A program made the translations under genes and the position numbers. The notes beneath the pieces are model-generated. The model was given only the letters and a program-made list of their open reading frames with translations. It was not told the origin of the DNA and did no database searches. Shown piece by piece: positions 33,251 through 58,206 of a DNA stretch of 64,000 nt. Source of the DNA: Escherichia virus TH58. Position 1 is the stretch's first letter; the number at the start of each line of letters is the position of its first letter. The DNA is taken from sequence record MT446423.1. One strand, given 5' to 3'.

Positions 33251-33724
33251 ATGTTATTATCAGGCGCAAAATATAAAGAAGAAAAACAAAAATTTTATGA
33301 TGCACAGAATGGTAAGTGTCCTATTTGCCACCGTGAATTAGACCCTGATGTTCAAGGTAACCATCTTGACCACGACCACGAATTAAACGGGCCAAAAGCA
33401 GGTAGAGTTCGTGGGTTACTCTGTAATCTGTGCAACGCAGCAGAAGGTCAAATGAAGCATAAGTTCAACCGTTCCGGTCTTAAAGGACGTGATGTTGACT
33501 ACCTCGAATGGCTTGAAGCTCTTCTTGCTTATTTGAAACAAGATTATTCTGATAATAATATCCATCCTAATTTTGTTCCAGACAAAACTAAAGAGTTCTC
33601 AAGACTAGGTAAAGAGGAAATGATGGCTGAGATGCTTCAAAGAGGATTTGAATATAATGAATCTGATACCAAAACACAATTAATAGCTTCATTCAAAAAG
33701 CAGCTTAGAAAGAGTTTAAAATGA
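33251..33724 (+). CDS. 49: Endonuclease VII (Holliday junction resolvase gp49)
   Basis: CPICHREL...HLDHDHELNGPKAGRVRGLLCNLCN zinc and HNH-like motif of T4 endo VII; 157 aa. Confidence 0.9.
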   Translation: MLLSGAKYKEEKQKFYDAQNGKCPICHRELDPDVQGNHLDHDHELNGPKAGRVRGLLCNLCNAAEGQMKHKFNRSGLKGRDVDYLEWLEALLAYLKQDYSDNNIHPNFVPDKTKEFSRLGKEEMMAEMLQRGFEYNESDTKTQLIASFKKQLRKSLK

Positions 33725-34258
33725 AAATTGAAAAAGAAATTGAAGGATTAATTCATAAAACTAATAAAGATCTTTTGAACGAGAATGCTAATAAAGATTC
33801 TCGTGTTTTTCCAACTCAACGGGACCTTATGGCTGGTATTGTGTCTAAGCACATTGCTAGAAATATGGTCCCGTCTTTTATTATGAAAGCACATGAAAGC
33901 GGAATTATCCATTTCCATGATATTGATTATTCCCCTGCTCTTCCGTTTACTAATTGCTGTTTAGTAGATTTAAAAGGAATGCTTGAGAATGGATTTAAAT
34001 TAGGCAATGCTCAAATTGAAACGCCTAAATCTATTGGCGTTGCTACTGCAATTATGGCACAAATTACTGCACAAGTTGCTTCACATCAGTACGGCGGAAC
34101 GACTTTTGCTAATGTAGATAAAGTACTTTCTCCTTATGTTAAACGCACCTATGCAAAACATATTGAGGATGCAGAAAAATGGCAAATCGCTGATGCGTTG
34201 AATTATGCCCAATCTAAAACAGAAAAAGACGTATACGATGCATTCCAAGCTTATGAGT
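33721..34258 (+). CDS. nrdD: Anaerobic ribonucleotide reductase NrdD, exon 1
   Basis: Frame continues to predicted 5' splice site after T34258 (P1: exon ATGAGT pairs with intron GCTCAT 34272-34277, U-G at splice site); in-frame TAA follows in intron. Confidence 0.75.
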
Positions 34259-34469
34259 TAATTTAATTCAGGCTCATGTAAAACCGGTCTAAACGGGGAA
34301 CCTCTCTAGTAGACAATCCCGTGCTAAATGTTCTTTTGAACTAAATGCCTAACGACTAACCGTGATGAATGTAGCGGTGTAGAATAGAAGCTAATGCTAT
34401 TCGAAACGGCCGGCATCGAAAGATGAAGATATAGTCTAATCTGCATGGCGACATGCAGCAGTCATCTTG

Positions 34470-34477
34470 TATAAATA
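34470..34477 (+). promoter_or_regulatory. Late promoter TATAAATA inside the intron, upstream of the homing endonuclease ORF
   Basis: Exact TATAAATA about 30 nt before the ATG at 34507. Confidence 0.45.
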
Positions 34478-34506
34478 AGATTATCTTATGAATACGAGGT
34501 GAAACA

Positions 34507-35277
34507 ATGAAATGGATAAAAAGACGTTGTACTAAAATAAAAGATAAAGACGCATTTACATACTTAGTTAAGTTTTCTAATGGCGACATTTATATCGGTT
34601 ATAAAAAATTTAGAACAATTAAAAACAAGCCCACAAACTGGAAAACTTACACAACGTCATCTAAGTATATAAATGAACGCTTAAAAACTGATACACCTAC
34701 TAAATGGATAATTTTAAAAACATTTGATAGTTATAAAGACGCATTAAAACATGAAGAAGAGGTCATACGTAAATATTTTTATAACAAAAAATGTTTAAAT
34801 AAATCCATAGGCGGTAAAAAGTTTTATAAGCATCCGGATACTGAAGAACATATTCAAAAATTAAGAGATGCTCATAAGGGTAAAGTGTTATCCGAATCTC
34901 ATAAAAACAATATAAAATCTTCTGTAGCTGAATATTATGCTAAAAACGGAAGATCTAAGGAACATGTGCAAAATAATATCAATAGTCGAAAAAGTAAAAA
35001 ACAAGTATCGATAAAGCTTAAAAATAAAACTTTTAGAAGTTTTAAAAAAGCGGCGGAATATTTAAATTGCACTGAAAGTGAAGTCGAAACTCATCCTCTT
35101 GTTTTGAGTATTAAGACTACTATTCATAAAGTTCCTGAATATGTGGTTGTTGACGGTATTAAGTATACGTCTTATATAGAAGCAGCTAAAGCGCTAAATT
35201 TTCATCCTAGCACTATAAAAGAACGTTGCATATCTATGGACTATCCAAATTTTGTTGTTTCATATAAACGGGCATGA
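34507..35277 (+). CDS. Intron-encoded GIY-YIG homing endonuclease (I-TevII-like)
   Basis: N-terminal FTYLVKFSNGDIYIGYKK (GIY-YIG), NUMOD-like repeats, C-terminal HTH-like tail; 256 aa; GAGGTGA RBS. Confidence 0.75.
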   Translation: MKWIKRRCTKIKDKDAFTYLVKFSNGDIYIGYKKFRTIKNKPTNWKTYTTSSKYINERLKTDTPTKWIILKTFDSYKDALKHEEEVIRKYFYNKKCLNKSIGGKKFYKHPDTEEHIQKLRDAHKGKVLSESHKNNIKSSVAEYYAKNGRSKEHVQNNINSRKSKKQVSIKLKNKTFRSFKKAAEYLNCTESEVETHPLVLSIKTTIHKVPEYVVVDGIKYTSYIEAAKALNFHPSTIKERCISMDYPNFVVSYKRA

Positions 35278-35291
35278 ATTTGCGACTCATG

Positions 35292-36583
35292 CTGAATATA
35301 ATGATGAAGTAAATACACTTTTCAGCTCTAATGGACAAACGCCTTTTGTAACAATTACATTTGGAACAGGAACTGACTGGACTGAACGAATGATTCAAAA
35401 AGCAATTCTGAAAAATCGTATTAAAGGTCTTGGACGTGACGGGATAACTCCTATTTTCCCTAAACTTGTTATGTTCGTTGAAGAAGGTGTTAATCTTTAT
35501 AAAGACGACCCGAACTACGATATTAAGCAGCTTGCTCTAGAGTGTGCAAGCAAAAGAATGTATCCTGATATTATTTCGGTTAAGAATAATAAAACTATCA
35601 CCGGTTCTTCAGTTCCTGTTTCTCCAATGGGCTGCCGTAGTTTCTTGAGCGTATGGAAAGATTCGACTGGTAATGAAATTCTTGATGGACGTAATAATCT
35701 TGGCGTTGTAACACTGAATCTTCCTCGTATTGCATTAGATTCTTATATTGGAACACAATTCAATGAACAGAAATTTGTTGAGTTATTTAATGAACGAATG
35801 GATCTGTGTTTTGAAGCCTTGATGTGTAGAATTAGTTCCTTAAAAGGAGTTAAAGCGACTGTTGCTCCTATTCTTTATCAAGAAGGTGCATTTGGGGTTC
35901 GTCTTAAACCTGATGATGACATAATTGAGTTATTTAAAAACGGTAGAAGTTCGGTGTCTTTAGGATACATTGGTATTCATGAATTGAATATTCTTGTCGG
36001 ACGTGATATTGGGCAAGAAATTTTAACTAAAATGAATGCTCGTCTTAAGCAGTGGACTGAAAGAACTGGTTTTGCTTTTAGCTTGTATTCTACTCCCGCT
36101 GAAAACCTTTGTTATCGCTTCTGTAAACTTGATACCGAGAAATATGGAAGTGTAAAAGATGTTACTGATAAAGGCTGGTACACTAATAGTTTCCATGTTT
36201 CAGTAGAAGAAAATATCACTCCGTTTGAAAAGATTTCTCGCGAAGCACCATATCATTTCATTGCGACCGGCGGACACATTTCTTATGTTGAACTTCCTGA
36301 TATGAAAAATAACTTAAAAGGACTTGAGGCTGTATGGGATTATGCCGCACAACATTTAGATTATTTTGGTGTTAATATGCCAGTAGATAAATGTTTTACA
36401 TGTGGAAGTACCCATGAAATGACTCCTACCGAAAACGGATTTGTTTGTTCTATTTGTGGAGAAACTGATCCTAAAAAGATGAACACAATAAGAAGAACAT
36501 GCGGTTATCTCGGAACTCCTAGCGTTGTTCCGTGGAATTTAGGTAAAATGAAAGAAATGGTAAAACGAGTAAAACATGCATAG
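35292..36583 (+). CDS. nrdD: Anaerobic ribonucleotide reductase NrdD, exon 2
   Basis: Contains C-terminal glycyl-radical motif RRTCGYLG and Cys-rich zinc site CFTCGSTHEMTPTENGFVCSICG; spliced product about 609 aa. Confidence 0.8.
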
Positions 36584-37406
36584 GTATTATATAATTTATA
36601 AAATAACAAATATAATTAATTCAAAGGAATATATCGGTGCGCATAGCACCGATAACATAAATGACGGTTATATGGGGTCAGGAACATTGATTCGTGCCGC
36701 TTTATTAAAATATGGTAGAAAAAATTTTAATAAAGAAATTTTACATGTTTTTGATAATGAAAAACAAATGTATGATAAAGAAGCTGAACTTGTAACCGAA
36801 GAGTATTGTCTAAAAGAAAATACATATAATATTAAACCTGGTGGAAAAGGTGGAACTGCCTATGAACAGACACTTGAACATCGCCGCAAAAATAGTTTAG
36901 CAAATAAAGGTAAAAAGAGAACAGAAGAAACTAAAATAGCTATTTCACGTGCTTTAAAGAAATATAAACGTACGCCAGAGCATCAAGCAAATTTAAATAA
37001 AGCCGTAAGCATAGCTATGAAGCGAAAAGATGTTAGAAGTAAATTAGCTGGAGAGCGGTCTGAGAAAGATAAATTATCTATATCAAACGGTGTTAAAAAA
37101 TATTACAATTCTTTGAGTGAAGAAGAACGCGAACTTCATCGCAAGCGAATTATTGAAGGTAAAAAGAATTCTCCCATGTCATTGGAATCTAGACAAAAGC
37201 TTTCAAAAGCTTTAAAAGGACTTCAAGTTGGTTCAAAAAATCCAATGTATGGAAAAATTTCTCCGACTAGCAAAACCGTTTCAGTTGACGGTATTAAATA
37301 TGATTCAATTAAAAAGTGCTCAAATGCCATAAAAGTTTCTAGACATCTTATACTAAAACGCTGTAATTCTACTGATGAAGCTTGGAAAAATTGGGTATTA
37401 TTATGA
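36576..37406 (+). CDS. Free-standing GIY-YIG homing endonuclease (seg-like)
   Basis: YYIIYKITNIINSKEYIGAHS...YMGSGTLIRAALLKYGRKNF; NUMOD3-like repeats; overlaps nrdD stop and nrdG start (ATGA at both ends). Confidence 0.75.
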   Translation: MHRYYIIYKITNIINSKEYIGAHSTDNINDGYMGSGTLIRAALLKYGRKNFNKEILHVFDNEKQMYDKEAELVTEEYCLKENTYNIKPGGKGGTAYEQTLEHRRKNSLANKGKKRTEETKIAISRALKKYKRTPEHQANLNKAVSIAMKRKDVRSKLAGERSEKDKLSISNGVKKYYNSLSEEERELHRKRIIEGKKNSPMSLESRQKLSKALKGLQVGSKNPMYGKISPTSKTVSVDGIKYDSIKKCSNAIKVSRHLILKRCNSTDEAWKNWVLL

Positions 37407-41124: not shown

Positions 41125-41682
41125 ATGACTGAACAAAAACCTAAAAATAATTATGTGAATAATAAAGAGCTTCTCGCCGCTATAATCGAGTGGAAAAAGG
41201 AGCTCTTAAATAATAAAGACCCAAACAAAATTATTCGTCAGAATGATACCATCGGTTTAGCAATTATGCTTATCGCCGAAGGCCTGTCCAAACGTTTCAA
41301 CTTTTCAGGATATACCCAGTCTTGGAAGCAGGAGATGATTGCAGATGGGATTGAAGCCTCTATTAAGGGACTTCATAATTTCGACGAAACTAAGTACAAT
41401 AACCCACATGCATACATAACTCGAGCTTGTTTTAATGCTTTTGTCCAACGTATCAAAAAAGAACGTAAGGAAGTTGCAAAGAAATATAGTTACTTCGTTC
41501 ATAATGTCTACGACAGTCATGACGATGATATGGTAGCGTTGGTAGATGAAACGTTTATTCAAGACATCTACGATAAAATGACGCATTATGAAGAATCCGC
41601 TTATAAAGCTCCTGGGGCTGAAAAGAAGGAAGTTGTTAGCGATTCGCCTAGTTTGGATTTTTTATATGAGGATGACAATTGA
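41125..41682 (+). CDS. 55: Late transcription sigma factor gp55
   Basis: 185 aa; [26 protein letters not shown]... matches T4 gp55 from memory. Confidence 0.85.
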
Positions 41683-41881
41683 CATCTCTAACTACTTAGA
41701 AGAACCTTTTGACGAAGCAATCCCTTATTTGGTAAAACTGTTGGGTCGTGAATTTAAAATTAATTTTGACATCGACCCTTTGAACCCACATGACGTGTCA
41801 TTTTCGATAAATGGGACTCCAGTTGAGTATGAGTTCCGTATTGAAGAGGATGGACGTTTTTATTTTAATTTAATGAGATAA
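41666..41881 (+). CDS. Small hypothetical protein
   Basis: Overlaps the end of gene 55; start uncertain. Confidence 0.35.
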
Positions 41882-41882
41882 T

Positions 41883-42206
41883 ATGACTACCGAGATTATT
41901 GAAAATAAAGAAGCAGAAGATGCAGTAGCTAAAATGCTACAAGAAATCCAAAAGAAAAATGAAGCTGAAGCACGTAAAAAATCTGAAAAGATTCTTAAAA
42001 AGAATCGTTTTGAACTAAACCGTCTTTATGCTCATGCTCAAGAAGCAGCAATTCAAAACAACTTCGAAGCTTACGAATATGCTATTAAGAAATCTCGGGA
42101 TATTCTACGACAACCATATAATGACAAGTTAATTAAAATCCAGTGGATTACTACTCGTCAGGCTATTGAGGACATCATTAATGGCGCTAGTTCAAACAAA
42201 GTTTAA
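41883..42206 (+). CDS. Hypothetical coiled-coil protein
   Basis: 107 aa. Confidence 0.5.
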   Translation: MTTEIIENKEAEDAVAKMLQEIQKKNEAEARKKSEKILKKNRFELNRLYAHAQEAAIQNNFEAYEYAIKKSRDILRQPYNDKLIKIQWITTRQAIEDIINGASSNKV

Positions 42207-42387
42207 ACGTCTTAATCTGAACGCAGGATTCTCCCTTAAATTGGGAGGTCCTCTTTGTGTTAAAATCTCTGAAAAGGAATATCACGACGGTTCTATTACA
42301 GAAATTTGTCCGCCTATTGTAAAGGCAGACCCAAAACAACTCGTGTGGGTTGATTCATTTCAAGTTAAGAAATGGTGGAAACGATGA
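42181..42387 (+). CDS. Small hypothetical protein
   Basis: ATG 42181; 68 aa. Confidence 0.4.
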   Translation: MALVQTKFKRLNLNAGFSLKLGGPLCVKISEKEYHDGSITEICPPIVKADPKQLVWVDSFQVKKWWKR

Positions 42388-42426
42388 GAGAAATCGATTT
42401 AGGTATTTTCTGAGAGGTGATTATGC

Positions 42427-42600
42427 ATGACGAACGACCTGACCTCTGAAAATTTCGATAAAATCCGTAAAGGCAAAGCAGAAAGAATGAGACGTTTTAA
42501 AGAGTCTTATGATAAAGCTAAAGCCGAAGGAACTATTACATACAAGCCTATTCGATTTAAAAGTTCAAATGAGCCTCTGTATGGTGTACTATGTGGATAG
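42427..42600 (+). CDS. Small basic protein (57 aa)
   Basis: GAGAGGTGA RBS; followed directly by a strong terminator. Confidence 0.4.
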   Translation: MTNDLTSENFDKIRKGKAERMRRFKESYDKAKAEGTITYKPIRFKSSNEPLYGVLCG

Positions 42601-42627
42601 GAACTCTTCGGAGTTCCTTTTTTTTTG
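42600..42627 (+). terminator. Rho-independent terminator
   Basis: GGAACTCTTCGGAGTTCC hairpin plus T9. Confidence 0.75.
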
Positions 42628-42673
42628 CTTTATATTTGGGATGATAAAATGAACCAACTAATGAGGAAAACAT

Positions 42674-42817
42674 ATGATTATATTTTTAGGTGTGACTATA
42701 TTGATATTAGCCTTCTATCTATTCACTAGGGCGTGTTGGATAGGTTTCTTTAGTACCCCAGATGGATTAATTTCTATGGTTTTATTTTGCATTGCGATAA
42801 TGGCGTTAGACTTATGA
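42674..42817 (+). CDS. Small membrane peptide (47 aa) coupled to gene 47
   Basis: GAGGAAAA RBS; two hydrophobic segments; ATGA overlap with gene 47 start. Confidence 0.4.
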   Translation: MIIFLGVTILILAFYLFTRACWIGFFSTPDGLISMVLFCIAIMALDL

Positions 42818-43833
42818 AAATTTTGCACTTAGGCGACTTCCATATCGGAGTCAAACAAGACGACCCATGGGTTCAAGATATTCAACGTGATGGTATTCGT
42901 CAAGCAATTGAATACTCTAAGAAACATGGGATTAAAACTTGGATTCAGTACGGTGATTGGTTTGACGTCCGTAAAGCAATAACACATCGTACAATGGAAT
43001 TCAATCGTGAAATCGTTGATATGATTTCTAAAGCAGGCATTCACGTTCATGTCACGATAGGAAACCATGACATGGCGTTTAAGAATACAATAACACCTAA
43101 CACTGTTTCTGAATTGTTAACTCAATTTGAAAACTTTACTATTTACGAGCATCCAACTACTGTAGATTTTGACGGATGTCTGATTGATATCGTTCCATGG
43201 ATGTGTGAAGAAAATACAGGTGAAATCTTAGAGCACATCAAGACTTCTTCCGCAGCGTATTGTGTTGGGCACTGGGAACTGAATGGCTTTTATTTCTATA
43301 AAGGAATGAAGTCTCATGGGCTTGAACCTGATTTCTTAAAGACCTATAAACAAGTCTGGTCCGGCCACTTCCACACAATCTCTGAAGCTGCTAACGTCAA
43401 ATATATTGGGACACCATGGACCCTTACTGCAGGCGATGAGAACGACCCTCGAGGATTCTGGGTATTTGACACTGATGTTGAACGTATGGAATTTATTCCT
43501 AATGAAACAACATGGCATCGACGAATCACTTATCCGTTTAAAGGCAAAATCAATTATTCTGATTATACTAATCTAGCCATACGTGTTATAGTATCAGAAA
43601 TTGATTCAGAGTTGACTAAGTTTGAATCTGAACTTGAAAAAGTAGTTCACTCTCTTCGTATGGTTTCTAAAGTTGATAACAGTGTTGAATCTGATGATGA
43701 CCAGGAAATCGAGATTAAATCACTTCAAGATATCATTAAAGAATATATTGACGCGATTCCAGATATCTCAGATGAAGATAGAGAAGCGCTGGTCAAATAT
43801 TCCAACGAACTTTATATTGAGGCAACACAATGA
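42814..43833 (+). CDS. 47: Recombination endonuclease subunit gp47 (Mre11/SbcD-like)
   Basis: MKILHLGDFHIGV... phosphoesterase motifs; 339 aa as T4 gp47. Confidence 0.9.
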   Translation: MKILHLGDFHIGVKQDDPWVQDIQRDGIRQAIEYSKKHGIKTWIQYGDWFDVRKAITHRTMEFNREIVDMISKAGIHVHVTIGNHDMAFKNTITPNTVSELLTQFENFTIYEHPTTVDFDGCLIDIVPWMCEENTGEILEHIKTSSAAYCVGHWELNGFYFYKGMKSHGLEPDFLKTYKQVWSGHFHTISEAANVKYIGTPWTLTAGDENDPRGFWVFDTDVERMEFIPNETTWHRRITYPFKGKINYSDYTNLAIRVIVSEIDSELTKFESELEKVVHSLRMVSKVDNSVESDDDQEIEIKSLQDIIKEYIDAIPDISDEDREALVKYSNELYIEATQ

Positions 43834-44087
43834 CTTTAGATGAATTTAACAATGCTGGTCTCAGGCTTGAAGTCGAAATGGACGTTAAAGATGATGATGG
43901 ATTCGAGAACACTATCAAGTATTGGATTGAGCCGTTACGCGTTGAAGGCAATGAAGTTAAAGCAGTTCATGTCTGCACCGACTGGGCTATTGAATTTAGC
44001 TTTAATATAATGGACAACGATACTCCTGGCTCTATTCTTAAAATGGCTGAAGCATGTATTGAGGACGCGTATAATGACGAAGACTGA
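43830..44087 (+). CDS. Small acidic protein
   Basis: 85 aa; between genes 47 and 46. Confidence 0.5.
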   Translation: MTLDEFNNAGLRLEVEMDVKDDDGFENTIKYWIEPLRVEGNEVKAVHVCTDWAIEFSFNIMDNDTPGSILKMAEACIEDAYNDED

Positions 44088-44313
44088 TTATGAAATCCAT
44101 CGTCATGAATTTAGTATTGGTGACGGTTATATTGGTGTCGTTGAATGGACTGAGAATTACGAGGAATCAACTCCTCGTTTCTTTGGAACAATGTATGTTA
44201 CCTGTGAGTACGCACCGGGTGTTGTTATGTATGCAGAACTAGATGAATATTTTGCTGATAGAGATGTCATGTTAAAATATGTAGAGGACTTCATTCGAAG
44301 AGAATACATATGA
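44074..44313 (+). CDS. Small hypothetical protein
   Basis: ATG 44074; 79 aa. Confidence 0.45.
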   Translation: MTKTDYEIHRHEFSIGDGYIGVVEWTENYEESTPRFFGTMYVTCEYAPGVVMYAELDEYFADRDVMLKYVEDFIRREYI

Positions 44314-45998
44314 AATCATTTAAATTAAATCGTGTTCGTTATCAAAACATCATGTCGGTAGGTGGGAATCCTATTGATATCCAATTAGATAAAGTCCAAA
44401 AGACATTAATCACTGGTAAAAATGGCGGTGGTAAATCTACGATGTTAGAAGCCATTACTTTCGGACTTTTCGGTAAACCATTTCGTGATGTTAAGAAAGG
44501 GCAAATCATTAATAGCACGAACAAGAAAGAGCTCTTAGTTGAGCTTTGGATGGAATTCGATGGTAAAAAATACTTCATTAAACGTGGCCAAAAGCCCAAT
44601 ATTTTCGAAATCTCCGTTGACGGTGTTCGTCTTGATGAATCTGCCAGCAGTCGTGACTTCCAAGAAGAATTTGAACGTAGCATCGGAATGTCATACGCGT
44701 CTTTTAAACAAATCGTTGTGCTTGGGACGGCAGGGTATACCCCTTTCATGGCTCTTAGCACCCCTGCTCGCAGAAAACTGGTCGAAGACCTTTTAGAAGT
44801 CGGCACACTCGCTGAAATGGATAAAATCAATAAGTCTCTAGTTCGAGAACTTAATTCCCAGGGACAAGTTCTCGATGCCAAGAAAGATGGTGTTATCCAA
44901 CAAATTAAGATTTATAACGAGAATATCGAACGTCAAAAGAAATTATCTGGTGATAATGTAGCGCGTCTACAGAATATGTATGACGACCTAGCCAAAGAAG
45001 CTCGTTCATTAAAAGCAGAAATCGAAGAAGCTAATGAGCGACTACTTAATATCGTTCTTGATGAAGACCCTACTGAGGCATTCAACAAGATCGGACAAGA
45101 AGCATTCTTGATTAAATCTAAAATCGACTCATATAACAAAGTTATTAAGATGTATCATGATGGTGGCACATGTCCTACTTGTGCATCACAGTTGCACCAG
45201 GGTGATCCTATTGTCTCTAAGATTACCGATAAGCTTCACGAATGTAATCACTCATTCGAGCAACTTACATGTCACAGAGATAATCTGAGTGTCCTAGTGG
45301 ACGAATATAGAGCTAATGTTAAGACTAAACATGACCTTGCATCCGATATTCGTACCAAGAAACAAGCAATGATTGCCACTATTGATAAAGCTAAGAAAGT
45401 TAAAGCTGCAATAGAACAAGCCTCAGCTGAATTTATCGACCATGCCGATGAGATAGCTTTGCTTCAAAAAGAACTTGATAAAATCATTAAAACAAAATCT
45501 GATATCGTTCTTGAAAAATACCATCGTGGTATTATCACAGATATGTTAAAAGATTCTGGTATTAAAGGTGCTATCATTAAAAAATATGTGCCTCTGTTCA
45601 ACAAGCAGATTAACCATTATCTTAAAATCATGGAAGCTGATTATGTGTTTTCTATTGACGAAGAATTCAATGAATCTATAAAATCACGTGGTCGTGAAGA
45701 TTTTAGTTATGCTTCATTTAGTCAAGGTGAAAAGGCACGTATCGATATCGCATTGTTGTTTACATGGCGAGATATTGCTGAAAAGGTCTCTGGTGTTAGA
45801 ATCAATACATTAATTATGGACGAAGTCATGGATTCCGCTACTGATTCTGAAGGTATTAAAGCTATTTCAACAATTCTTAACTCTCTAACCGATGCAAACG
45901 TGTTTATAATTAGTCATAGAGACCATGACCCACAAGCTTATGGACAACATCTTCAAATGAGCAAAGTTGGACGATTTACAGTAATGACTGTTTCATAA
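44310..45998 (+). CDS. 46: Recombination endonuclease subunit gp46 (Rad50/SbcC-like ATPase)
   Basis: Walker A GKNGGGKST, zinc-hook CPTC, signature and Walker B (LIMDEV); 562 aa. Confidence 0.9.
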   Translation: MKSFKLNRVRYQNIMSVGGNPIDIQLDKVQKTLITGKNGGGKSTMLEAITFGLFGKPFRDVKKGQIINSTNKKELLVELWMEFDGKKYFIKRGQKPNIFEISVDGVRLDESASSRDFQEEFERSIGMSYASFKQIVVLGTAGYTPFMALSTPARRKLVEDLLEVGTLAEMDKINKSLVRELNSQGQVLDAKKDGVIQQIKIYNENIERQKKLSGDNVARLQNMYDDLAKEARSLKAEIEEANERLLNIVLDEDPTEAFNKIGQEAFLIKSKIDSYNKVIKMYHDGGTCPTCASQLHQGDPIVSKITDKLHECNHSFEQLTCHRDNLSVLVDEYRANVKTKHDLASDIRTKKQAMIATIDKAKKVKAAIEQASAEFIDHADEIALLQKELDKIIKTKSDIVLEKYHRGIITDMLKDSGIKGAIIKKYVPLFNKQINHYLKIMEADYVFSIDEEFNESIKSRGREDFSYASFSQGEKARIDIALLFTWRDIAEKVSGVRINTLIMDEVMDSATDSEGIKAISTILNSLTDANVFIISHRDHDPQAYGQHLQMSKVGRFTVMTVS

Positions 45999-46000
45999 AC

Positions 46001-46024
46001 GCTTTAACACGATGTGGTTATAAT
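46001..46024 (+). promoter_or_regulatory. Promoter with hairpin GTGGTTATAATGACCAC
   Basis: GCTTTA...TATAAT with inverted repeat flanking the -10. Confidence 0.45.
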
Positions 46025-46052
46025 GACCACATCAAATTAAATGGAGAACAAC

Positions 46053-46241
46053 ATGGAGTATTCAACCGGCCAACATCTTCTCGTTGTCCCTGAAATTAAA
46101 AAATATGTTTTGACCAATACTTTTTCAGGTGAAGAACATATTGTTACTGAACAAATGCTCAAATCTGCTTTTAAAGATGAGTATAATAAAATAATGTCTA
46201 ATCGCAATTCCGCATGGACAGTTACCGACTTCTACGAATAA
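46053..46241 (+). CDS. Small hypothetical protein
   Basis: ATG 46053 after GGAG; 62 aa. Confidence 0.45.
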   Translation: MEYSTGQHLLVVPEIKKYVLTNTFSGEEHIVTEQMLKSAFKDEYNKIMSNRNSAWTVTDFYE

Positions 46242-46253
46242 GAGAGAAATAAT

Positions 46254-46670
46254 ATGTTTACTACTGCTAAAGGTTTCACTGCTGCTGATCTGAAAGTTAC
46301 TTCTATCCGTACTGACGCTAACCCACATAACCATAATCGTGTTCGTAAAGCATGGGTCCTGCATTGTGATGACGCAAGTGCTAAAAAACTCCAATCTTTG
46401 CCACAAGAAACTCGTTTTATGATTTATGGTTTTATTGATAACGATGTATCTGATATGTGGATTCATCTGATGCGTAAGCACTATAAAGATTCTATTGAAG
46501 CCGGCGGAAAAATCGTTCTTGATAAAGATGGTTCTGAGCGTCTGGAAGATTTCTACTGTGTTGATGCAGACGAACAACTAATTGCAGCCGGCGAAATTGT
46601 TGCTTCTAAAATTCCAGAATATATTGAATCACTGCCTGAAGCTATTAAAAAGCAGATGGTTTCTGCTTAA
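46254..46670 (+). CDS. Hypothetical protein at the T4 rpbA position
   Basis: 138 aa immediately upstream of gene 45; assignment by position only. Confidence 0.45.
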   Translation: MFTTAKGFTAADLKVTSIRTDANPHNHNRVRKAWVLHCDDASAKKLQSLPQETRFMIYGFIDNDVSDMWIHLMRKHYKDSIEAGGKIVLDKDGSERLEDFYCVDADEQLIAAGEIVASKIPEYIESLPEAIKKQMVSA

Positions 46671-46712
46671 TAAATTTGTTATAAACTTTGAATTGTCTTG
46701 AAAGGAAATAAA

Positions 46713-47399
46713 ATGAAACTGTCTAAAGATACTATCGCTATTCTGAAAAACTTTGCCTCTATTAACTCCGGCATTCTGCTGAGTCAAGGTAAATTTATTA
46801 TGACTCGTGCAGTTAATGGCACCACTTATGCGGAAGCAAATATCTCTGATGAAATTGATTTTGACGTAGCACTTTATGATTTGAATAGCTTCTTAAGCAT
46901 TTTGAGTCTAGTGTCTGATGATGCTGAAATTTCAATGCACACCGATGGCAATATTAAAATTGCAGATACACGTTCCACGGTTTATTGGCCTGCCGCTGAC
47001 AAGAGCACCATTGTTTTTCCTAATAAGCCAATTCAATTCCCAGTGGCTTCTGTGATTACTGAAATTAAAGCTGAAGACCTTCAACAATTGCTTCGAGTTT
47101 CACGTGGACTTCAGATTGATACAATTGCTATTACAAATAAAGATGGCAAAATTGTTATCAATGGTTATAATAAAGTTGAAGATTCTGGACTAACTCGTCC
47201 TAAGTATTCTTTGACTCTTACCGATTATGATGGTTCTAACAATTTTAACTTCGTAATCAATATGGCTAATATGAAAATCCAGCCAGGTAACTATAAAGTA
47301 ATGTTGTGGGGAGCTGGTGATAAAGTTGCAGCCAAGTTTGAAAGCTCTCAAGTAAGTTATGTTATTGCGATGGAAGCTGATTCTACTCACGACTTCTAA
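46713..47399 (+). CDS. 45: Sliding clamp gp45
   Basis: ATG 46713 after AAAGGAAA; MKLSKDTIAILKNFASINSGILL...; 228 aa as T4 gp45. Confidence 0.9.
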   Translation: MKLSKDTIAILKNFASINSGILLSQGKFIMTRAVNGTTYAEANISDEIDFDVALYDLNSFLSILSLVSDDAEISMHTDGNIKIADTRSTVYWPAADKSTIVFPNKPIQFPVASVITEIKAEDLQQLLRVSRGLQIDTIAITNKDGKIVINGYNKVEDSGLTRPKYSLTLTDYDGSNNFNFVINMANMKIQPGNYKVMLWGAGDKVAAKFESSQVSYVIAMEADSTHDF

Positions 47400-47474
47400 G
47401 TCAAAGCTTTACGTTTAATGTAGTACTATTATGGAGGAGAAATCCTCCAGTTTAATGATAATGAGGAAAATTAC

Positions 47475-48437
47475 ATGATTACTATCAATTCCAAAGAACA
47501 CATTCTAGAACAGAAATATCGTCCTTCTTCCATTGACGAATGTATTCTGCCTGCGTATGACCATGAAACATTCAAGTCTTTAGTATCTAAAGGAAAACTT
47601 CCTCATATTATTTTACACTCTCCATCTCCTGGTACAGGTAAAACAACCGTAGCAAAAGCATTATGTAACGATATCAACGCCGAAATGATGTTCGTCAACG
47701 GTTCTGATTGTAAAATTGATTTTGTACGCGGCCCGTTAACCGCATTCGCTCGTTCAGTCTCAATGGAAGGCAAGCCGAAAGTTATCGTTATCGATGAATT
47801 TGACCGTAGTGGCCTTGCTGAATCACAACGGCACCTTCGTACATTCATGGAAGAATTCTCTAGTAACTGTTCTATTATTATTACTGCTAACAACATCGAT
47901 GGAATTATTGAACCATTACGTAGTCGTTGTCGAGTTATCGAATTCGGACGTCCAACCGAAGAAGATAAAATCTCGATGATGAAGAAGATGATTCATCGTA
48001 TGGTTGAAATCTGTAAGAACGAAAATATCGAAATCGCTGATATGAAAGTTGTTGCAGCTCTGGTTAAAAAGAACTTCCCGGACTTTCGTCGTACAATTGG
48101 TCAATTAGACCGGTACTCGTCTAAAGGTGTTCTTGATGCAGGTATTTTGTCGATTGTAACCAATGATCGTGGCACGGTAGATGATGTCATAGAAGCAATG
48201 AAAAATAAAGATATCAAACAGCTTCGTGCATTAGCTCCAAAATACGCCGCAGATTATTCATGGTTCATCGATAAATTAGTTTCAGAATGTTATGACAAAG
48301 TTGCACCTGGTAAAAGTATTATTTCACTTTACGAAATTGCAGGCGAAAACAATAAGTTTCATGGATTAGCAAGTAATATTGAATTACATGTTATGTATAT
48401 GCTTCTTCAACTAACCTGCGAACTGACTTGGAAATAA
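47475..48437 (+). CDS. 44: Clamp loader large subunit gp44
   Basis: Walker [14 protein letters not shown] box, SRC motif; 320 aa. Confidence 0.9.
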
Positions 48438-48438
48438 T

Positions 48439-49002
48439 ATGAACTTATTCGATGATGACGTCCGGCTTAACGAGCACCAAATTGCATGGAAGTCTAATGA
48501 CGCTGATGCGATTCAAAAATGTGCTGATATGTTTAAAGAAAAACCTGAGAATGAATTCTTTAAAATCATTAATGCTATTAATGAAAAGAAATCTATGTCA
48601 ATTGCTCAGGTCGACTACTCAAAATTTATGGTTGAGAACTCATTATCCCAGTTCCCAGAATGTATGCCAGCTGTTTACATGATGAACTTAGTCGGTTCTG
48701 AATTAAGTGATGAAGCGCACTTCAACTATATGATGGCGGCAATTCCGCGTGGTCGTCGATTCTCTAAATGGGCTAAACTAGTCGAAGACACTTCAGAGTT
48801 ACTAGTTATCAAACTGTTGATGAAACATTACACAATCAACATGAATGATGCTACCGAGTATAAGCGGCTCCTTGAAAAAAATAACAAGTTGCCAATAGTC
48901 CTTAAAGAACTGAAGGCCATGGTCACTGATGAGTTTCTCAAAGAAGTTACAAAAAATGTGAAAGAACAAAAACAATTTAAAAAAATAGCATTGGAATGGT
49001 AA
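48439..49002 (+). CDS. 62: Clamp loader small subunit gp62
   Basis: 187 aa directly after gene 44. Confidence 0.85.
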
Positions 49003-49004
49003 AA

Positions 49005-49373
49005 ATGATTGAAATTAAATTGAAGAACCCTGAAGATTTTCTGAAAGTCAAAGAGACTTTGACCCGTATGGGCATCGCTAATAACAAGGATAAAGTCCTT
49101 TACCAGTCTTGTCATATCCTCCAAAAGCAAGGTAAGTACTATATCGTCCACTTTAAAGAAATGTTGCGTATGGATGGACGTCAGGTTGATATTGACGGTG
49201 AAGATTATCAGAGACGTGATTCGATTGCCCAGTTGCTTGAAGACTGGGGATTGATTGTTATTGAAGACTCTGCTCGTGAAGATCTATTTAGCCTGACTAA
49301 TAACTTCCGAGTTATCTCTTTTAAACAGAAAGATGTCTGGACTTTGAAAGCAAAATATACAATTGGTAATTAA
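49005..49373 (+). CDS. regA: Translational repressor RegA
   Basis: MIEIKLKNPEDFLKVKETLTRMGIANNKDKVLYQSCHILQK... matches T4 RegA; 122 aa. Confidence 0.9.
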   Translation: MIEIKLKNPEDFLKVKETLTRMGIANNKDKVLYQSCHILQKQGKYYIVHFKEMLRMDGRQVDIDGEDYQRRDSIAQLLEDWGLIVIEDSAREDLFSLTNNFRVISFKQKDVWTLKAKYTIGN

Positions 49374-49455
49374 AGCAATGGGACTTCGGTCCCATTTGGA
49401 GTATAATAAGTTCCATCAACAAACAAAAGACAATAACTCGTCTAAAGGAAATTAA

Positions 49456-52167
49456 ATGAAAGAATTTTACCTAACGGTTGAACAGATTGGTGATTCAATT
49501 TTTGAACGTTACATCGATTCTAATGGCTGTGAACGTACTCGTGAAGTAGAGTATAAGCCATCATTGTTTGCACATTGTCCTGAAAGTCAGGCCACGAAAT
49601 ATTTTGATATCTACGGTAAACCTTGTACTCGTAAACTGTTCGCTAACATGCGTGATGCCTCCCAATGGATTAAACGCATGGAAGATATCGGACTTGAAGC
49701 ACTTGGTATGGACGATTTCAAATTGGCGTATTTGTCTGACACTTATAACTATGAAATCAAATACGACCATACAAAAATTCGTGTGGCTAACTTCGACATC
49801 GAAGTAACATCTCCGGATGGGTTCCCTGAGCCGTCGCAAGCAAAACATCCGATTGATGCTATCACCCATTATGACTCAATTGACGACAGGTTCTACGTAT
49901 TTGATCTATTGAATTCTCCATATGGTAATGTGGAAGAATGGTCTATCGAAATTGCAGCTAAGCTTCAAGAACAAGGTGGTGATGAAGTTCCATCCGAAAT
50001 TATCGACAAAATCGTTTATATGCCGTTCGATAACGAAAAAGAATTGTTGATGGAATATCTCAACTTCTGGCAACAGAAAACTCCTGTCATTTTGACTGGA
50101 TGGAACGTTGAGTCATTTGATATTCCATATGTGTATAACCGAATCAAGAATATTTTTGGCGAATCTACTGCGAAACGTTTATCACCACATCGTAAAACTC
50201 GTGTTAAAGTTATCGAAAACATGTATGGTTCTCGTGAAATCATTACATTGTTCGGTATCTCTGTTCTTGATTACATTGACCTTTACAAAAAATTCTCTTT
50301 TACCAATCAACCGTCGTATTCTCTGGATTACATTTCAGAATTTGAATTGAACGTTGGTAAACTGAAATATGACGGCCCTATTTCTAAGCTTCGTGAAAGC
50401 AATCACCAACGATATATTTCTTATAACATTATCGACGTGTATCGTGTATTGCAAATTGATGCTAAGCGTCAGTTCATCAACTTGAGTTTGGACATGGGTT
50501 ATTATGCTAAGATACAGATTCAATCTGTGTTTAGTCCAATTAAAACATGGGATGCTATTATTTTTAATAGCCTTAAAGAGCAGAACAAGGTGATTCCACA
50601 AGGTCGTTCTCATCCGGTTCAACCTTATCCTGGCGCTTTTGTTAAGGAACCTATTCCAAATCGATACAAATATGTAATGAGTTTCGACCTTACATCTCTG
50701 TATCCAAGTATTATTCGCCAAGTGAATATTAGCCCAGAAACAATAGCAGGAACGTTTAAAGTAGCTCCATTGCATGATTATATTAACGCTGTTGCTGAAC
50801 GTCCTTCTGATGTGTACAGTTGTTCTCCTAACGGCATGATGTATTATAAAGACCGTGATGGTGTAGTTCCAACTGAAATCACTAAAGTCTTTAATCAACG
50901 TAAAGAACATAAAGGTTACATGCTTGCAGCTCAACGTAATGGTGAAATAATTAAAGAGGCATTGCATAATCCTAATCTTTCTGTCGACGAACCATTAGAT
51001 GTTGATTATCGTTTCGACTTCAGTGATGAGATTAAAGAAAAGATTAAAAAGTTGTCTGCTAAATCTCTTAATGAAATGTTGTTTAGAGCTCAACGTACTG
51101 AAGTTGCAGGTATGACTGCCCAAATTAACCGTAAATTGCTTATCAACTCACTTTATGGTGCACTTGGCAACGTTTGGTTCCGTTATTATGATTTGCGTAA
51201 TGCTACCGCAATCACAACATTTGGTCAAATGGCTTTACAGTGGATTGAACGTAAAGTTAATGAATATCTGAATGAAGTTTGTGGTACAGAAGGTGAAGCT
51301 TTCGTTCTATATGGTGATACAGACTCTATTTACGTATCTGCTGATAAAATTATCGATAAGGTTGGTGAATCTAAATTCCGTGATACCAACCATTGGGTAG
51401 ACTTCTTAGATAAGTTTGCACGTGAACGTATGGAACCAGCTATTGATAGAGGTTTCCGTGAAATGTGTGAATACATGAACAATAAACAACACTTAATGTT
51501 CATGGACCGAGAAGCTATCGCTGGTCCTCCGCTCGGTTCTAAAGGTATTGGTGGATTCTGGACTGGTAAGAAACGTTATGCATTAAACGTGTGGGACATG
51601 GAAGGTACTCGTTACGCTGAGCCTAAACTCAAAATAATGGGTCTAGAGACTCAGAAATCTTCGACTCCTAAAGCAGTACAGAAAGCTCTTAAAGAATGTA
51701 TTCGTCGTATGCTTCAAGAAGGTGAAGAATCATTACAAGAATATTTTAAAGAGTTTGAAAAAGAATTCCGTCAATTGAATTATATTAGCATCGCGTCGGT
51801 ATCTTCTGCGAATAACATTGCTAAATATGAAGTAGGTGGATTCCCGGGTCCTAAATGCCCGTTCCATATTCGTGGAATTCTGACGTATAACCGGGCTATC
51901 AAAGGTAATATCGATGCACCGCAAGTTGTAGAAGGTGAAAAAGTATATGTTCTGCCTTTACGTGAAGGAAACCCATTCGGTGATAAATGTATCGCATGGC
52001 CTTCTGGTACTGAAATCACAGATTTAATTAAAGACGACGTACTTCATTGGATGGACTACACTGTTCTCCTTGAGAAGACATTTATTAAACCACTTGAAGG
52101 ATTCACATCAGCAGCGAAACTCGATTACGAGAAGAAAGCATCTCTGTTCGATATGTTCGATTTTTGA
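49456..52167 (+). CDS. 43: DNA polymerase gp43 (family B)
   Basis: 903 aa; exonuclease motifs FDIEV and YNIIDV, polymerase motifs DLTSLYPSII, KILINSLYGALG, YGDTDS; N-terminus RB69-like from memory. Confidence 0.95.
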   Translation: MKEFYLTVEQIGDSIFERYIDSNGCERTREVEYKPSLFAHCPESQATKYFDIYGKPCTRKLFANMRDASQWIKRMEDIGLEALGMDDFKLAYLSDTYNYEIKYDHTKIRVANFDIEVTSPDGFPEPSQAKHPIDAITHYDSIDDRFYVFDLLNSPYGNVEEWSIEIAAKLQEQGGDEVPSEIIDKIVYMPFDNEKELLMEYLNFWQQKTPVILTGWNVESFDIPYVYNRIKNIFGESTAKRLSPHRKTRVKVIENMYGSREIITLFGISVLDYIDLYKKFSFTNQPSYSLDYISEFELNVGKLKYDGPISKLRESNHQRYISYNIIDVYRVLQIDAKRQFINLSLDMGYYAKIQIQSVFSPIKTWDAIIFNSLKEQNKVIPQGRSHPVQPYPGAFVKEPIPNRYKYVMSFDLTSLYPSIIRQVNISPETIAGTFKVAPLHDYINAVAERPSDVYSCSPNGMMYYKDRDGVVPTEITKVFNQRKEHKGYMLAAQRNGEIIKEALHNPNLSVDEPLDVDYRFDFSDEIKEKIKKLSAKSLNEMLFRAQRTEVAGMTAQINRKLLINSLYGALGNVWFRYYDLRNATAITTFGQMALQWIERKVNEYLNEVCGTEGEAFVLYGDTDSIYVSADKIIDKVGESKFRDTNHWVDFLDKFARERMEPAIDRGFREMCEYMNNKQHLMFMDREAIAGPPLGSKGIGGFWTGKKRYALNVWDMEGTRYAEPKLKIMGLETQKSSTPKAVQKALKECIRRMLQEGEESLQEYFKEFEKEFRQLNYISIASVSSANNIAKYEVGGFPGPKCPFHIRGILTYNRAIKGNIDAPQVVEGEKVYVLPLREGNPFGDKCIAWPSGTEITDLIKDDVLHWMDYTVLLEKTFIKPLEGFTSAAKLDYEKKASLFDMFDF

Positions 52168-52207
52168 TATAATGACATGGACGGTAAACTAATTAAATGA
52201 GAGAAAT

Positions 52208-52843
52208 ATGAAAACTACTCCTATTACTATCGCTATTGACGCAATCATAAAACAAGCTTCTTCTTTGGCCGCTATGGCCAAAGTAATTAGTCAAAACCCT
52301 GCTCGTTATAATGCTATTCTAGAAACTCTTCGACGCCCAGGACTTAGTAATTATGAAAGTCGTGTAATTATTACAGGTGTTGGTAAGAACGCTAATATCG
52401 CAACTAAAGCTTCTGAGACTTTTGCTTCATTAGGTATTCCTAGCATGTATTTGAACACCGGGCATTATTCTCACGGCGATGCAGGATTCATTGCGCCTAA
52501 TGATGTGTTGATTCATATTAGTCGTTCTGGTAAAACTGAAGAAATGATAGGCGTGGCTAAGCATCTTAAAATGATTCGTCCGAACGTCAAACAGATTCTG
52601 TTGCATTGTAACCCAGACATTCCACAAGAAAATGAAGCCCTTTTTGATTACTCTTTCTGTACAGGCATCGCAGTAGAGGTTGATGAGAATTCTCTGGCTC
52701 CGACTATGTCCACTACATTGTTGTTAGCGCTTATCGATACGTTTGCTATCAACCTTTCGTCTGAACGTGGATTTACCTCTAATGACTTCCTTAAGTTCCA
52801 CCCTGGTGGTGCACTAGGTGCCATGTTACGAGGCGAACAATGA
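52208..52843 (+). CDS. SIS-domain sugar-phosphate isomerase (KdsD/GutQ-like, probable arabinose-5-phosphate isomerase)
   Basis: ITGVGKNANIATKASETFASLGIPSMYLNTGHYSHGDAGF...HISRSGKTEE...HPGGALG follows the KdsD SIS pattern; 211 aa, no CBS domains. Confidence 0.65.
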   Translation: MKTTPITIAIDAIIKQASSLAAMAKVISQNPARYNAILETLRRPGLSNYESRVIITGVGKNANIATKASETFASLGIPSMYLNTGHYSHGDAGFIAPNDVLIHISRSGKTEEMIGVAKHLKMIRPNVKQILLHCNPDIPQENEALFDYSFCTGIAVEVDENSLAPTMSTTLLLALIDTFAINLSSERGFTSNDFLKFHPGGALGAMLRGEQ

Positions 52844-52983
52844 AAGCAATAACAATAGGACTTTTACTATTGATGCTTGTCATGACTATCTACTGGAGCT
52901 TAACGGCTCCAGTAATGATTCCAACACTTGTAATCGGATGGATTATGATTGGACTACAAGCAAAGTATGAATGCTTTAACTAG
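52840..52983 (+). CDS. Small membrane peptide (47 aa)
   Basis: ATGA overlap with SIS gene stop; GAGG RBS; two hydrophobic segments. Confidence 0.35.
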   Translation: MKAITIGLLLLMLVMTIYWSLTAPVMIPTLVIGWIMIGLQAKYECFN

Positions 52984-52996
52984 AATAGTGTACAAT
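52972..52996 (+). promoter_or_regulatory. Candidate MotA-dependent middle promoter
   Basis: TGCTTTA at 52972-52978, 12-nt spacer, TACAAT 52991-52996; upstream of ATG 53025. Confidence 0.45.
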
Positions 52997-53024
52997 ACTC
53001 CTACTTACCAATGAGGACCACAAC

Positions 53025-54710
53025 ATGAAAAAAGCTGTTATTCTTGGTGCTGGACTGGCAACTCGTTTGTATCCAATAACGCATCATATTCCTAAGGTGC
53101 TTGTTAACTATAAACAAGACACTATTCTGAGCAATTTGTATACAATTTATTCTGACCTTGGCGCAGATGAAATTATTGTAGTAGTTCATTCAAAATTTGC
53201 TGAAACCGTTCGAGCTTATTGTGAGCAAGAAGGGTTCAATGTGACTATTCGTACAGTTGATGAAGCATATGGTTCTGCTTATGCTCTTGCTAAATTGCAC
53301 AAAGATTTAGACGGTCATAATGTAATTGTTAACTGGTGTGATATTATTCCCGATTTTGGTTCATGGTCTTGGAATGTTAACGCAATCTATGTTAAGGGTG
53401 ACGAATGTCGATATAATTTCGACGGTGAAAATATCACTAACGTAGGTTCAACAGGTGGTAATGTTGTAGGAATTTATCAGTTCAAAGACTGGGAATTCTA
53501 TATGGGTTCTACTGATGAGGAAATTCATGAATACTGCAAAGGACGTGATTTCGTAGAATTCCTTTACGGCAGCGCATTCAATAAATCAGAGCTTATGAAT
53601 CTAATTGATTTAGGTGATATGCCTAAACTTGAAAAGGCTCATGAAGTTCGTGAACTTAATCGTAGTTTTAATGCGGTTGAAATTGGTGAAGAAACTGTAA
53701 CTAAATTCGCATTAACCGAACAGGGCCGATCTCTTCAGAAAGATGAGATTTCATGGTATCTTAAAGTGAAATCAGATTCAGTTCCTCAGTTAGTTTCTGT
53801 TAATGAAAATAACTTTGAAATGGAACGCATTAAAGGTAAGCCGGCATTTGAATATATTAAATCCAAATCGAGTCTTGCTCGTCCACAAATTGTTGATGCA
53901 ATTTTAGATGCACTGAAATTCAGCACAGACACTTATTTTGTAAGTCCTGAAACTGTTCGTCGTGATTTCACTAAAGAATTCTATACTAAAGTCATCGATC
54001 GTTGTGAAAGTATTCAACCATTGATTGATTCATTTGGTAAAATCACACATGTGAACTACACTAAGATTGGACGTCTGAAGCCAATGTTGAAACAAGCTTT
54101 AGAACACCTTATTCGTTATCATAACCGTTCTCAGGGACAGTACTCTGTTATTCATGGTGACCCGAACTTCAGTAATACTATGATTACTGATAATGGTGAA
54201 GTAAAGTTTATCGACCCTCGTGGATATTTTGGTGAAACCAAGATTTACGGGCCAAAATTGTATGACGAAGCTAAAGTGCTTTACGCTGTTTCAGGTTATG
54301 ATGAATTCAACGCCAATCCGACCTGGGGACAGTTTACTATTGATGAAATAACCTGTAATGTGACTATTAACATCAATCCATTAGTTTACAAATATGGAAA
54401 GATGAGTTCGTTTAACGTGTATCATCATTTGGCAGTGGCAATTATCTGGATTGCATTAGGTGGTTATTTCAAGAATAATCCACTTAAAGCGGTAGCCGCA
54501 TATTATAAAGGTATGGAACTTCTGACTAAGCAATTACGTAACATGGGCCGTGTACTTCAGGACGGCACTATTAGTTATGATGTAGCAGAACCTGTAACGG
54601 CTACTCTGATTACAAAAAATCCTGGTAAATGGGTACTAACTGATAAAGAAACTGGTGTTTCTTATCGTCCAATCGGTGGCGATAACACTCATCAATGGGA
54701 ACGAATCTAA
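53025..54710 (+). CDS. Bifunctional sugar-1-phosphate nucleotidyltransferase / sugar kinase
   Basis: N-terminal MKKAVILGAGLATRLYPIT (NDP-sugar pyrophosphorylase G-loop); C-terminal HGDPNFSN and FIDPRG (APH/choline-kinase-like motifs); 561 aa. Confidence 0.65.
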   Translation: MKKAVILGAGLATRLYPITHHIPKVLVNYKQDTILSNLYTIYSDLGADEIIVVVHSKFAETVRAYCEQEGFNVTIRTVDEAYGSAYALAKLHKDLDGHNVIVNWCDIIPDFGSWSWNVNAIYVKGDECRYNFDGENITNVGSTGGNVVGIYQFKDWEFYMGSTDEEIHEYCKGRDFVEFLYGSAFNKSELMNLIDLGDMPKLEKAHEVRELNRSFNAVEIGEETVTKFALTEQGRSLQKDEISWYLKVKSDSVPQLVSVNENNFEMERIKGKPAFEYIKSKSSLARPQIVDAILDALKFSTDTYFVSPETVRRDFTKEFYTKVIDRCESIQPLIDSFGKITHVNYTKIGRLKPMLKQALEHLIRYHNRSQGQYSVIHGDPNFSNTMITDNGEVKFIDPRGYFGETKIYGPKLYDEAKVLYAVSGYDEFNANPTWGQFTIDEITCNVTININPLVYKYGKMSSFNVYHHLAVAIIWIALGGYFKNNPLKAVAAYYKGMELLTKQLRNMGRVLQDGTISYDVAEPVTATLITKNPGKWVLTDKETGVSYRPIGGDNTHQWERI

Positions 54711-55096: not shown

Positions 55097-55150
55097 TAAT
55101 TTAAGTAAGACCTGCAAAAACCATCGCAACAATTAACGCGAGATGCAAAA

Positions 55151-56457: not shown

Positions 56458-56589
56458 TACTACGCTGATGCATTTCTTCATAGTGTTCTTGGAAATATCG
56501 ATGCTGAAGCTTTACGTTATATCAACACCGCTAAGAAATTCAAATAAGCTTTATGAATTGAGTATATAATAAATTGTATTGAGGTAAAC

Positions 56590-58205: not shown

Positions 58206-58206
58206 A

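Follow-up and report, generated by a model that had tools for sequence, protein, structure and literature searches.

Genes between gene 55 and gene 47

We analysed 64,000 nucleotides (nt) of Escherichia virus TH58 (MT446423.1; this whole stretch is the window referred to below), focusing on the interval between genes 55 and 47, where T4 carries the gene for alpha-glucosyltransferase (a-gt). The interval, 41683–42813, runs from the base right after the gene 55 stop codon to the base right before the ATG of gene 47, and all of its features lie on the + strand. A 3.4-kb query around it matched 146 records at 95–99% identity (counted at 80% query coverage or more); those listed are all RB69-like, including PhAPEC2, SSE1, APCEc01 and phiE142, and the genus Mosigvirus is the classification of PhAPEC2, the sole record among these matches whose taxonomy was read. 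DNA identity with RB69 is about 97.5% (aligned over 42813–61906), and the proteins of the window are mostly 98–100% identical to those of RB69 (gp43, 99.7%; gp47, 99.7%; gp55, 99.5%). From these identities, the phage is a Mosigvirus related to RB69, within the Tevenvirinae. The open reading frames (ORFs) and signals of the interval and its two flanking genes are as follows (lengths in amino acids, aa).

41125–41682, +: gene 55, late sigma factor; annotated as gp55 in PhAPEC2, RB69 and T4
41666–41881, +: a-gt.5 ortholog, 71 aa (69 aa from the ATG at 41672); Pfam DUF5491, E = 8.7e-13; PHROG 1169
41883–42206, +: a-gt.4 ortholog, 107 aa; Pfam DUF2654, E = 1.6e-27; 58% identity to T4 a-gt.4, 99% to RB69
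42181–42387, +: a-gt.3 ortholog, 68 aa, overlapping the end of a-gt.4; PHROG 1648; 68% identity to T4 a-gt.3 (tblastn E = 2.6e-28), 97% to RB69 a-gt.3
42427–42600, +: a-gt.2 ortholog, 57 aa; Pfam DUF5486, E = 4.5e-28; 75% identity to T4 a-gt.2, 98% to RB69
42599–42626, +: intrinsic-terminator-like hairpin; 8-bp stem, UUCG tetraloop, T9 run; begins within the a-gt.2 stop codon
42626–42650, +: MotA-type middle-promoter motif; TGCTTTA at 42626–42632, 12-nt spacer, TAAAAT at 42645–42650
42674–42817, +: gene 47.1 ortholog, 47 aa, predicted membrane peptide; 74% identity to T4 gp47.1; PHROG 6693, E = 2.6e-26
42814–43833, +: gene 47, SbcD-like nuclease subunit; Pfam Metallophos

A first-pass annotation of this DNA had counted five short ORFs in 41666–42600, followed by a 47-aa membrane peptide. 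Four of these ORFs are conserved, and the 47-aa ORF is itself the fifth small ORF of the interval; the only other candidates for a fifth conserved gene, a TTG-started 26-aa ORF (42350–42430) and an out-of-frame 47-aa ORF (42509–42652), both overlap conserved genes and were rejected. The membrane peptide was called correctly: ORF 42674–42817 is real and hydrophobic, with a grand average of hydropathy of 1.9 and two hydrophobic segments. The annotation missed that the small ORFs and the peptide are ordinary T4 orthologs, all five being 47–75% identical to their T4 counterparts. The a-gt.5 ortholog (47% identity to T4 a-gt.5, 98.6% to RB69 a-gt.5) shares 17 nt with the end of gene 55, an overlap also seen in T4.

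The annotated T4 order is 55, a-gt.5, a-gt.4, a-gt.3, a-gt.2, mobB, a-gt, 47.1, 47. T4 therefore has the homing-endonuclease gene mobB and a-gt, whereas the window has neither. Judged by orthology, the interval is the standard T4-type small-gene block (a-gt.5, a-gt.4, a-gt.3, a-gt.2) minus mobB and a-gt; nothing in it is unusual for a T4-type phage, and the 141-nt gene 47.1 is only slightly so. The PHROG matches of these ORFs are families of unknown function, except for a weaker match of a-gt.2 to a family labelled head maturation protease, and a literature search on the function of a-gt.2 to a-gt.5 and gp47.1 yielded nothing. Because the 'a-gt.x' genes are named by position only and are kept in phages without a-gt, their function is probably unrelated to glucosylation.

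Absence of glucosyltransferase genes

In T4 and in Klebsiella phage Mineola, a-gt lies downstream of a-gt.2 and ahead of the terminator preceding gene 47; the window has no gene in this slot. The earlier observation that no alpha-glucosyltransferase is encoded between genes 55 and 47 was confirmed, as no ORF in the interval matched a glycosyltransferase family in Pfam and a tblastn search with T4 a-gt (400 aa) gave no match within 41683–42813. Across the whole window, the best match to T4 a-gt had E = 0.011 (85 aa, 28% identity). This match, at 26245–26484, was rejected as a divergent glucosyltransferase: it falls inside an AAA-like ORF (26098–27099) with AAA-like and helix–turn–helix-like Pfam traces, the counterpart of nrdC.10, which is also present in T4. 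We also considered, and rejected, the possibility that the interval retains a degraded or pseudogene copy of a-gt. Only 73 nt separate the a-gt.2 stop from the 47.1 start, all of them accounted for by the hairpin and the promoter motif, and a tblastn match at 41663–41794 (E = 1.4) is noise. Both a-gt and mobB are cleanly absent, with no remnant of either.

The other two glucosyltransferases were not found either. T4 b-gt gave a best E of 2.1 in the window, and a T2-type ba-gt query from RB14 gave no match at E ≤ 5 there. The first-pass annotation had also reported b-gt to be missing near gene 42; by homology this holds, but the slot downstream of the gene 42 counterpart is not empty, as it contains a different, GT-B-fold glycosyltransferase (see below). 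In RB69, bases 1–100,000 were searched by tblastn and bases 100,001–167,560 were judged from annotation tables alone. The first part contains no a-gt homolog (best E = 0.025), nothing matching b-gt at E ≤ 1 and nothing matching ba-gt at E ≤ 5; in the second part, no coding sequence of at least 250 aa is unassigned, all of them being named T4 orthologs. Consistent with these searches, RB69 has been reported to have no homolog of the T4 glucosyltransferases (Thomas 2018, PMC6024577; Lee 2026, PMC13326640). Homologs of a-gt were found in 657 phage records, in identity bands filled by Tequatrovirus (at least 90%) and Klebsiella phages (about 65%), and homologs of b-gt in 126 phage records, 34 of them from Escherichia phages; these distributions leave no room for the at least 146 Mosigvirus records.

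An RB69-type DNA-modification cluster

A complete RB69-type modification cluster lies at 52208–58755, between gene 43 and uvsX. It is collinear with that of RB69, and its proteins are 98–100% identical to those of RB69. Its genes, together with the kinase gene 1 elsewhere in the window, are as follows.

52208–52843, +: arabinose-5-phosphate isomerase, counterpart of RB69 gp55 (RB69p055, 100% identity); Pfam SIS; role according to Lee 2026, Table 1
53025–54710, +: nucleotidyltransferase/kinase fusion, counterpart of RB69 gp52:53; Pfam NTP_transferase and weak kinase-like matches
54695–55096, +: phosphatase-like protein, counterpart of RB69 gp51 (RB69p051, 98.4% identity); PHROG 1238; role proposed in Lee 2026
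55151–56311, +: peptidase-U32-like protein, counterpart of RB69 gp50 (RB69p050, 99.2% identity); Pfam Peptidase_U32
56590–57306, +: ThyA homolog at the position of T4 gene 42, counterpart of RB69 gp48 (99.6% identity); Pfam Thymidylat_synt only
57306–58205, +: GT-B-fold glycosyltransferase, 299 aa, in the T4 b-gt slot; counterpart of RB69 gp46:47 (putative arabinosyltransferase 1)
58207–58755, +: thymidylate-kinase-like nucleotide kinase, counterpart of RB69 gp45 (RB69p045, 98.9% identity); PHROG 761, thymidylate kinase
2424–3158, +: gene 1 deoxynucleoside monophosphate (dNMP) kinase, counterpart of RB69 gp159 (95.9% identity)

The ThyA homolog is not an ortholog of T4 gp42, the deoxycytidine monophosphate (dCMP) hydroxymethylase, with which it shares 24.8% identity over 218 aa, compared with the 47–75% at which the a-gt.x set is conserved with T4. 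RB69 gp48 has been shown experimentally to make 5-hydroxy-dCMP (5hodCMP), which a dNMP kinase was shown to phosphorylate (Lee 2026, PMC13326640). Given its near identity to gp48, the product of ORF 56590–57306 is, as far as homology can tell, a 5-hydroxy-dCMP synthase and not a dCMP hydroxymethylase ortholog.

The product of the 299-aa ORF next to it folds into a pair of Rossmann-like domains resembling GT-B enzymes of solved structure, although at the family level it is anonymous: it matches no Pfam family, and hence no curated glycosyltransferase family, at E ≤ 0.01, and its PHROG (3891) is one of unknown function. The proposed donor for its RB69 counterpart is an arabinose nucleotide sugar, transferred onto 5-hydroxycytosine, and gp52:53 is proposed to make this nucleoside diphosphate (NDP)-arabinose (Lee 2026, PMC13326640). 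ORF 53025–54710 is 98–99.5% identical to RB69p053 and RB69p052, two genes that are a single ORF here.

Arabinose has been found in RB69 virion DNA (Thomas 2018, PMC6024577), and liquid chromatography–mass spectrometry and nuclear magnetic resonance have shown that cytosine is replaced there by mono- and di-arabinosylated 5-hydroxycytosine (Lee 2026, PMC13326640). With proteins 98–100% identical to those of RB69, the phage studied here almost certainly shares this DNA chemistry. The non-glucose modification suggested by the first-pass annotation is therefore supported, the stronger evidence being the RB69-type cluster outside the flagged interval.

Two further observations concern the cluster. 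The small ORFs within it are also kept with RB69 (RB69p049 counterpart, 56308–56544, 95% identity; RB69p054 counterpart, 52873–52980, 100%). In addition, the ORF pairs 46/47 and 52/53 of the RB69 GenBank record each correspond to one uninterrupted ORF in the window. The split of genes 46 and 47 in that record has been attributed to a sequencing error (Lee 2026, PMC13326640), a statement that the single ORF found here supports; the division of 52/53 could have arisen in the same way.

Probable arabinosylation in place of glucosylation

We propose that this is an RB69-like phage in which the a-gt slot is empty and an arabinosyl-5-hydroxycytosine pathway replaces that of glucosyl-hydroxymethylcytosine, and we put the probability of this reading at roughly 0.9. 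The ThyA homolog would make 5-hydroxy-dCMP and no hydroxymethylcytosine would be made, so that the phage would need neither a-gt nor b-gt. Arabinose, supplied through the adjacent sugar-nucleotide genes, would then be added by GT-B arabinosyltransferases, of which one occupies the T4 b-gt slot.

Several points weigh against this proposal. The searches covered 64 kb of the genome, and a glucosyltransferase might lie elsewhere in this phage. RB69 gp3, the second arabinosyltransferase, and RB69 gp56, a dCTPase, gave no match in the window; their genes lie at 2.5 kb and 15 kb in RB69, both outside the RB69 region that corresponds to the window. The activity of RB69 gp46:47 is without biochemical demonstration (Lee 2026, PMC13326640), and the support drawn from the 100–167-kb part of RB69 comes from annotation only. 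Finally, a terminator scan of a 4-kb region found no overall enrichment (5 sites compared with 2.4 ± 1.5 expected).

With 64 kb of the genome in view, another scenario places relocated glucosyltransferase genes beyond the window and assumes T4-like glucosylated hydroxymethylcytosine in the DNA. Modification genes can indeed be dispersed: in RB69, gp3 is encoded far from the main cluster, beside rIIA and gene 39. However, the enzyme that makes hydroxymethylcytosine is itself missing, as the gene 42 counterpart shares 25% identity with T4 gp42 and 99.6% with the 5-hydroxy-dCMP synthase of RB69. RB69 also lacks a homolog of a-gt, b-gt or ba-gt, and the a-gt and b-gt homologs fall into identity bands in which the Mosigvirus records have no place. 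We consider such a relocation very improbable.

Alternatively, a new DNA-modification function that replaces a-gt could reside in at least one of the interval's small ORFs. The a-gt neighbourhood is occupied by ORFs of DUF families and PHROG families of unknown function, on which the functional literature search came up empty, and this would leave room for such a role. Yet every one of these ORFs has an ortholog in T4, where, as in Mineola, such genes occur alongside a-gt; because T4 carries the same small ORFs beside a-gt, they do not replace it. At 47–107 aa, they also fall short of the size that a GT-A or GT-B fold requires, and their retention in phages with and without a-gt argues for a function independent of sugar chemistry. 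The idea thus has hardly any chance of being correct. A further idea is that a-gt was lost through faulty assembly or cloning, or through a laboratory deletion confined to this sequence; a-gt is non-essential in T4, but the same arrangement is found in 146 independent records (at least 95% identity), including RB69, PhAPEC2 and ESh27, and the junction is a clean, conserved terminator–promoter cassette, so that this explanation is effectively refuted.

Both the absence of a-gt and the non-glucose reading are already known from the RB69 GenBank record and from Thomas 2018 and Lee 2026. Arabosylated rather than glucosylated DNA would affect how this phage behaves towards restriction, type IV and glycosylase-based defence and CRISPR-based engineering; beyond correct annotation, the significance of the present locus is slight.

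A predicted terminator–promoter cassette

The first-pass annotation had described a strong terminator in the interval, and the hairpin after a-gt.2 bears this out on sequence grounds, having a GC-rich stem-loop followed by a U run. Its stem, AGGAACTC/GAGTTCCT at 42599–42618, closes the UUCG loop, nine T follow at 42618–42626, and the fold has a free energy of −11.7 kcal/mol (z = −3.5). The PhAPEC2 record annotates the same hairpin as an ARNold terminator. From these features, we infer that the hairpin terminates transcription.

The pattern TGCTTYA-N11–13-TANNNT has 10 matches in the window where 1.83 are expected, about a fivefold excess that none of 100 shuffled sequences reached, and 8 of the 10 matches are on the + strand. 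In T4, the MotA middle-promoter consensus is a TGCTTtA box, followed after 12 ± 1 bp by a −10 element of the form TAnnnT. The motif at 42626–42650 is kept in Mosigvirus, Dhakavirus and T4, whereas Jiaodavirus has a degenerate version. RB69 encodes motA and asiA, both outside the region that corresponds to the window. We infer that the motif is an active MotA-dependent middle promoter, predicted to drive 47.1-47-46; the cassette would then read terminator, MotA-dependent middle promoter, with 47.1, 47 and 46 after it.

At this one site, six different stems (those of the window, ESh27, IME281 and Mineola and the two T4 copies) all fold, with free energies of −8.4 to −12.6 kcal/mol, although the conservation of pairing among them is a qualitative comparison. 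In the other phages, a T-rich run and GCTTTATA (in Mineola, a degenerate form of it) come after each hairpin, and then a −10-like TAAAAT or TATAAT. The stems of three of them are listed here.

ESh27: GGAAGC/GCTTCC
IME281 (Dhakavirus): GGAGC/GCTCC
Mineola (Jiaodavirus): GGGCC/GGCCC, after its a-gt

ESh27 shares gene 47.1 with the window, yet its hairpin is wholly different (GGAAGC-CTAGT-GCTTCC, within 2428–2506 of the ESh27 sequence, versus GGAACTC-TTCG-GAGTTCC, within 42590–42680 of the window). In ESh27, the stretch between a-gt.3 and a-gt.2 is also about 50 nt longer.

Gene 47.1

The stop codon of 47.1 overlaps the gene 47 start (ATGA), and the same overlap is found in T4. In RB69 and PhAPEC2, the shared leader (AATGAGGAAA..ATATG) runs straight into gene 47. 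Gene 47.1 is thus an exact 141-nt presence/absence polymorphism within Mosigvirus (42674–42814), delimited by the start codons of 47.1 and 47, and it occurs at 96% identity or more in only four phage records: ESh27, Mizar, CCU7 and TH12. A recent horizontal origin was considered and is not supported, as the divergence of 47.1 from T4 (72.5% identity) matches that of the adjacent gene 47 (72.6%). Because the two genes are equally diverged from T4, the pattern fits ancestral retention with loss in most Mosigviruses rather than recent import.

Other features of the window

The gene nrdD (33721–36583) is split into ORFs at 33721–34266 and 35252–36583. The insert consists of a group I intron core (34223–34458; Rfam RF00028, 72 bits) and an ORF for a GIY-YIG/NUMOD1 endonuclease (34507–35277); a scan of the whole window with Rfam at the gathering threshold missed the intron, whereas a narrow scan detected it. 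RB69 lacks this insert, leaving an alignment gap at about 34256–35297. Between nrdD and nrdG lies a free-standing homing-endonuclease-like ORF (36576–37406) with a NUMOD3 motif and an I-TevI-type DNA-binding domain. T4 has an unrelated HNH gene, mobC, in its place, and RB69 lacks the ORF altogether (alignment gap at about 36519–37403). Two adjacent tRNA genes are found at 5696–5849, a position at which RB69 has tRNA-Met and tRNA-Arg.

Comparison with T4, RB69 and other T4-like phages

The contents of the slot between a-gt.2 and gene 47 differ among relatives. Mineola has a-gt.2, a-gt, the terminator and gene 47, with one copy of the cassette, whereas IME281 has no a-gt; Mosigvirus and Dhakavirus each have one cassette copy. 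T4 has the same UUCG hairpin and MotA-box cassette twice, after a-gt.2 and after a-gt, so that the copies flank mobB and a-gt, whereas the window has a single copy. Because the contents of Mineola, IME281 and T4 differ, the slot is variable across the Tevenvirinae, and its arrangement in the window is the normal Mosigvirus state.

Composite terminator/promoter cassettes known as PeSLs have been proposed to mediate insertions and deletions in T4-like phages (Arbiol et al. 2010, PMC2839356; Comeau et al. 2014, PMC4122927). The cassette described here resembles them in pairing a short stem-loop with a promoter at the edge of a variable gene module, and T4 has copies on both sides of the module that is absent from the window. 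It differs from them in its promoter motif, which is of the MotA (middle) type, whereas the published PeSLs have early promoters and come from hyperplastic regions. Tentatively, the slot might be a recombination hot spot in which a PeSL-like cassette mediates the gain and loss of DNA-modification genes, and the window, with its gene 47.1, might represent a rarer, probably ancestral Mosigvirus state; we regard this as doubtful. Any part played by the cassette in gaining or losing a-gt itself is speculative.

The predicted 299-aa transferase of the modification cluster was compared with T4 a-gt (PDB 1y6f) and the GT4-like GT-B glycosyltransferases: it shares about 12% identity with a-gt, with no detectable sequence homology, is about 100 residues shorter and sits in the b-gt slot. 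RB69 (Mosigvirus RB69) is among the closest known counterparts of the window. Since its genome was deposited, the annotated RB69 order has been 55, a-gt.5, a-gt.4, a-gt.3, a-gt.2, 47. Neither RB69 (bases 1–100,000) nor the window has a match to a-gt, b-gt or ba-gt, and both phages have the same ThyA homolog, GT-B transferase and sugar-nucleotide genes. Gene order in RB69 is as in the window, with the modification genes of both lying between gene 43 and uvsX.

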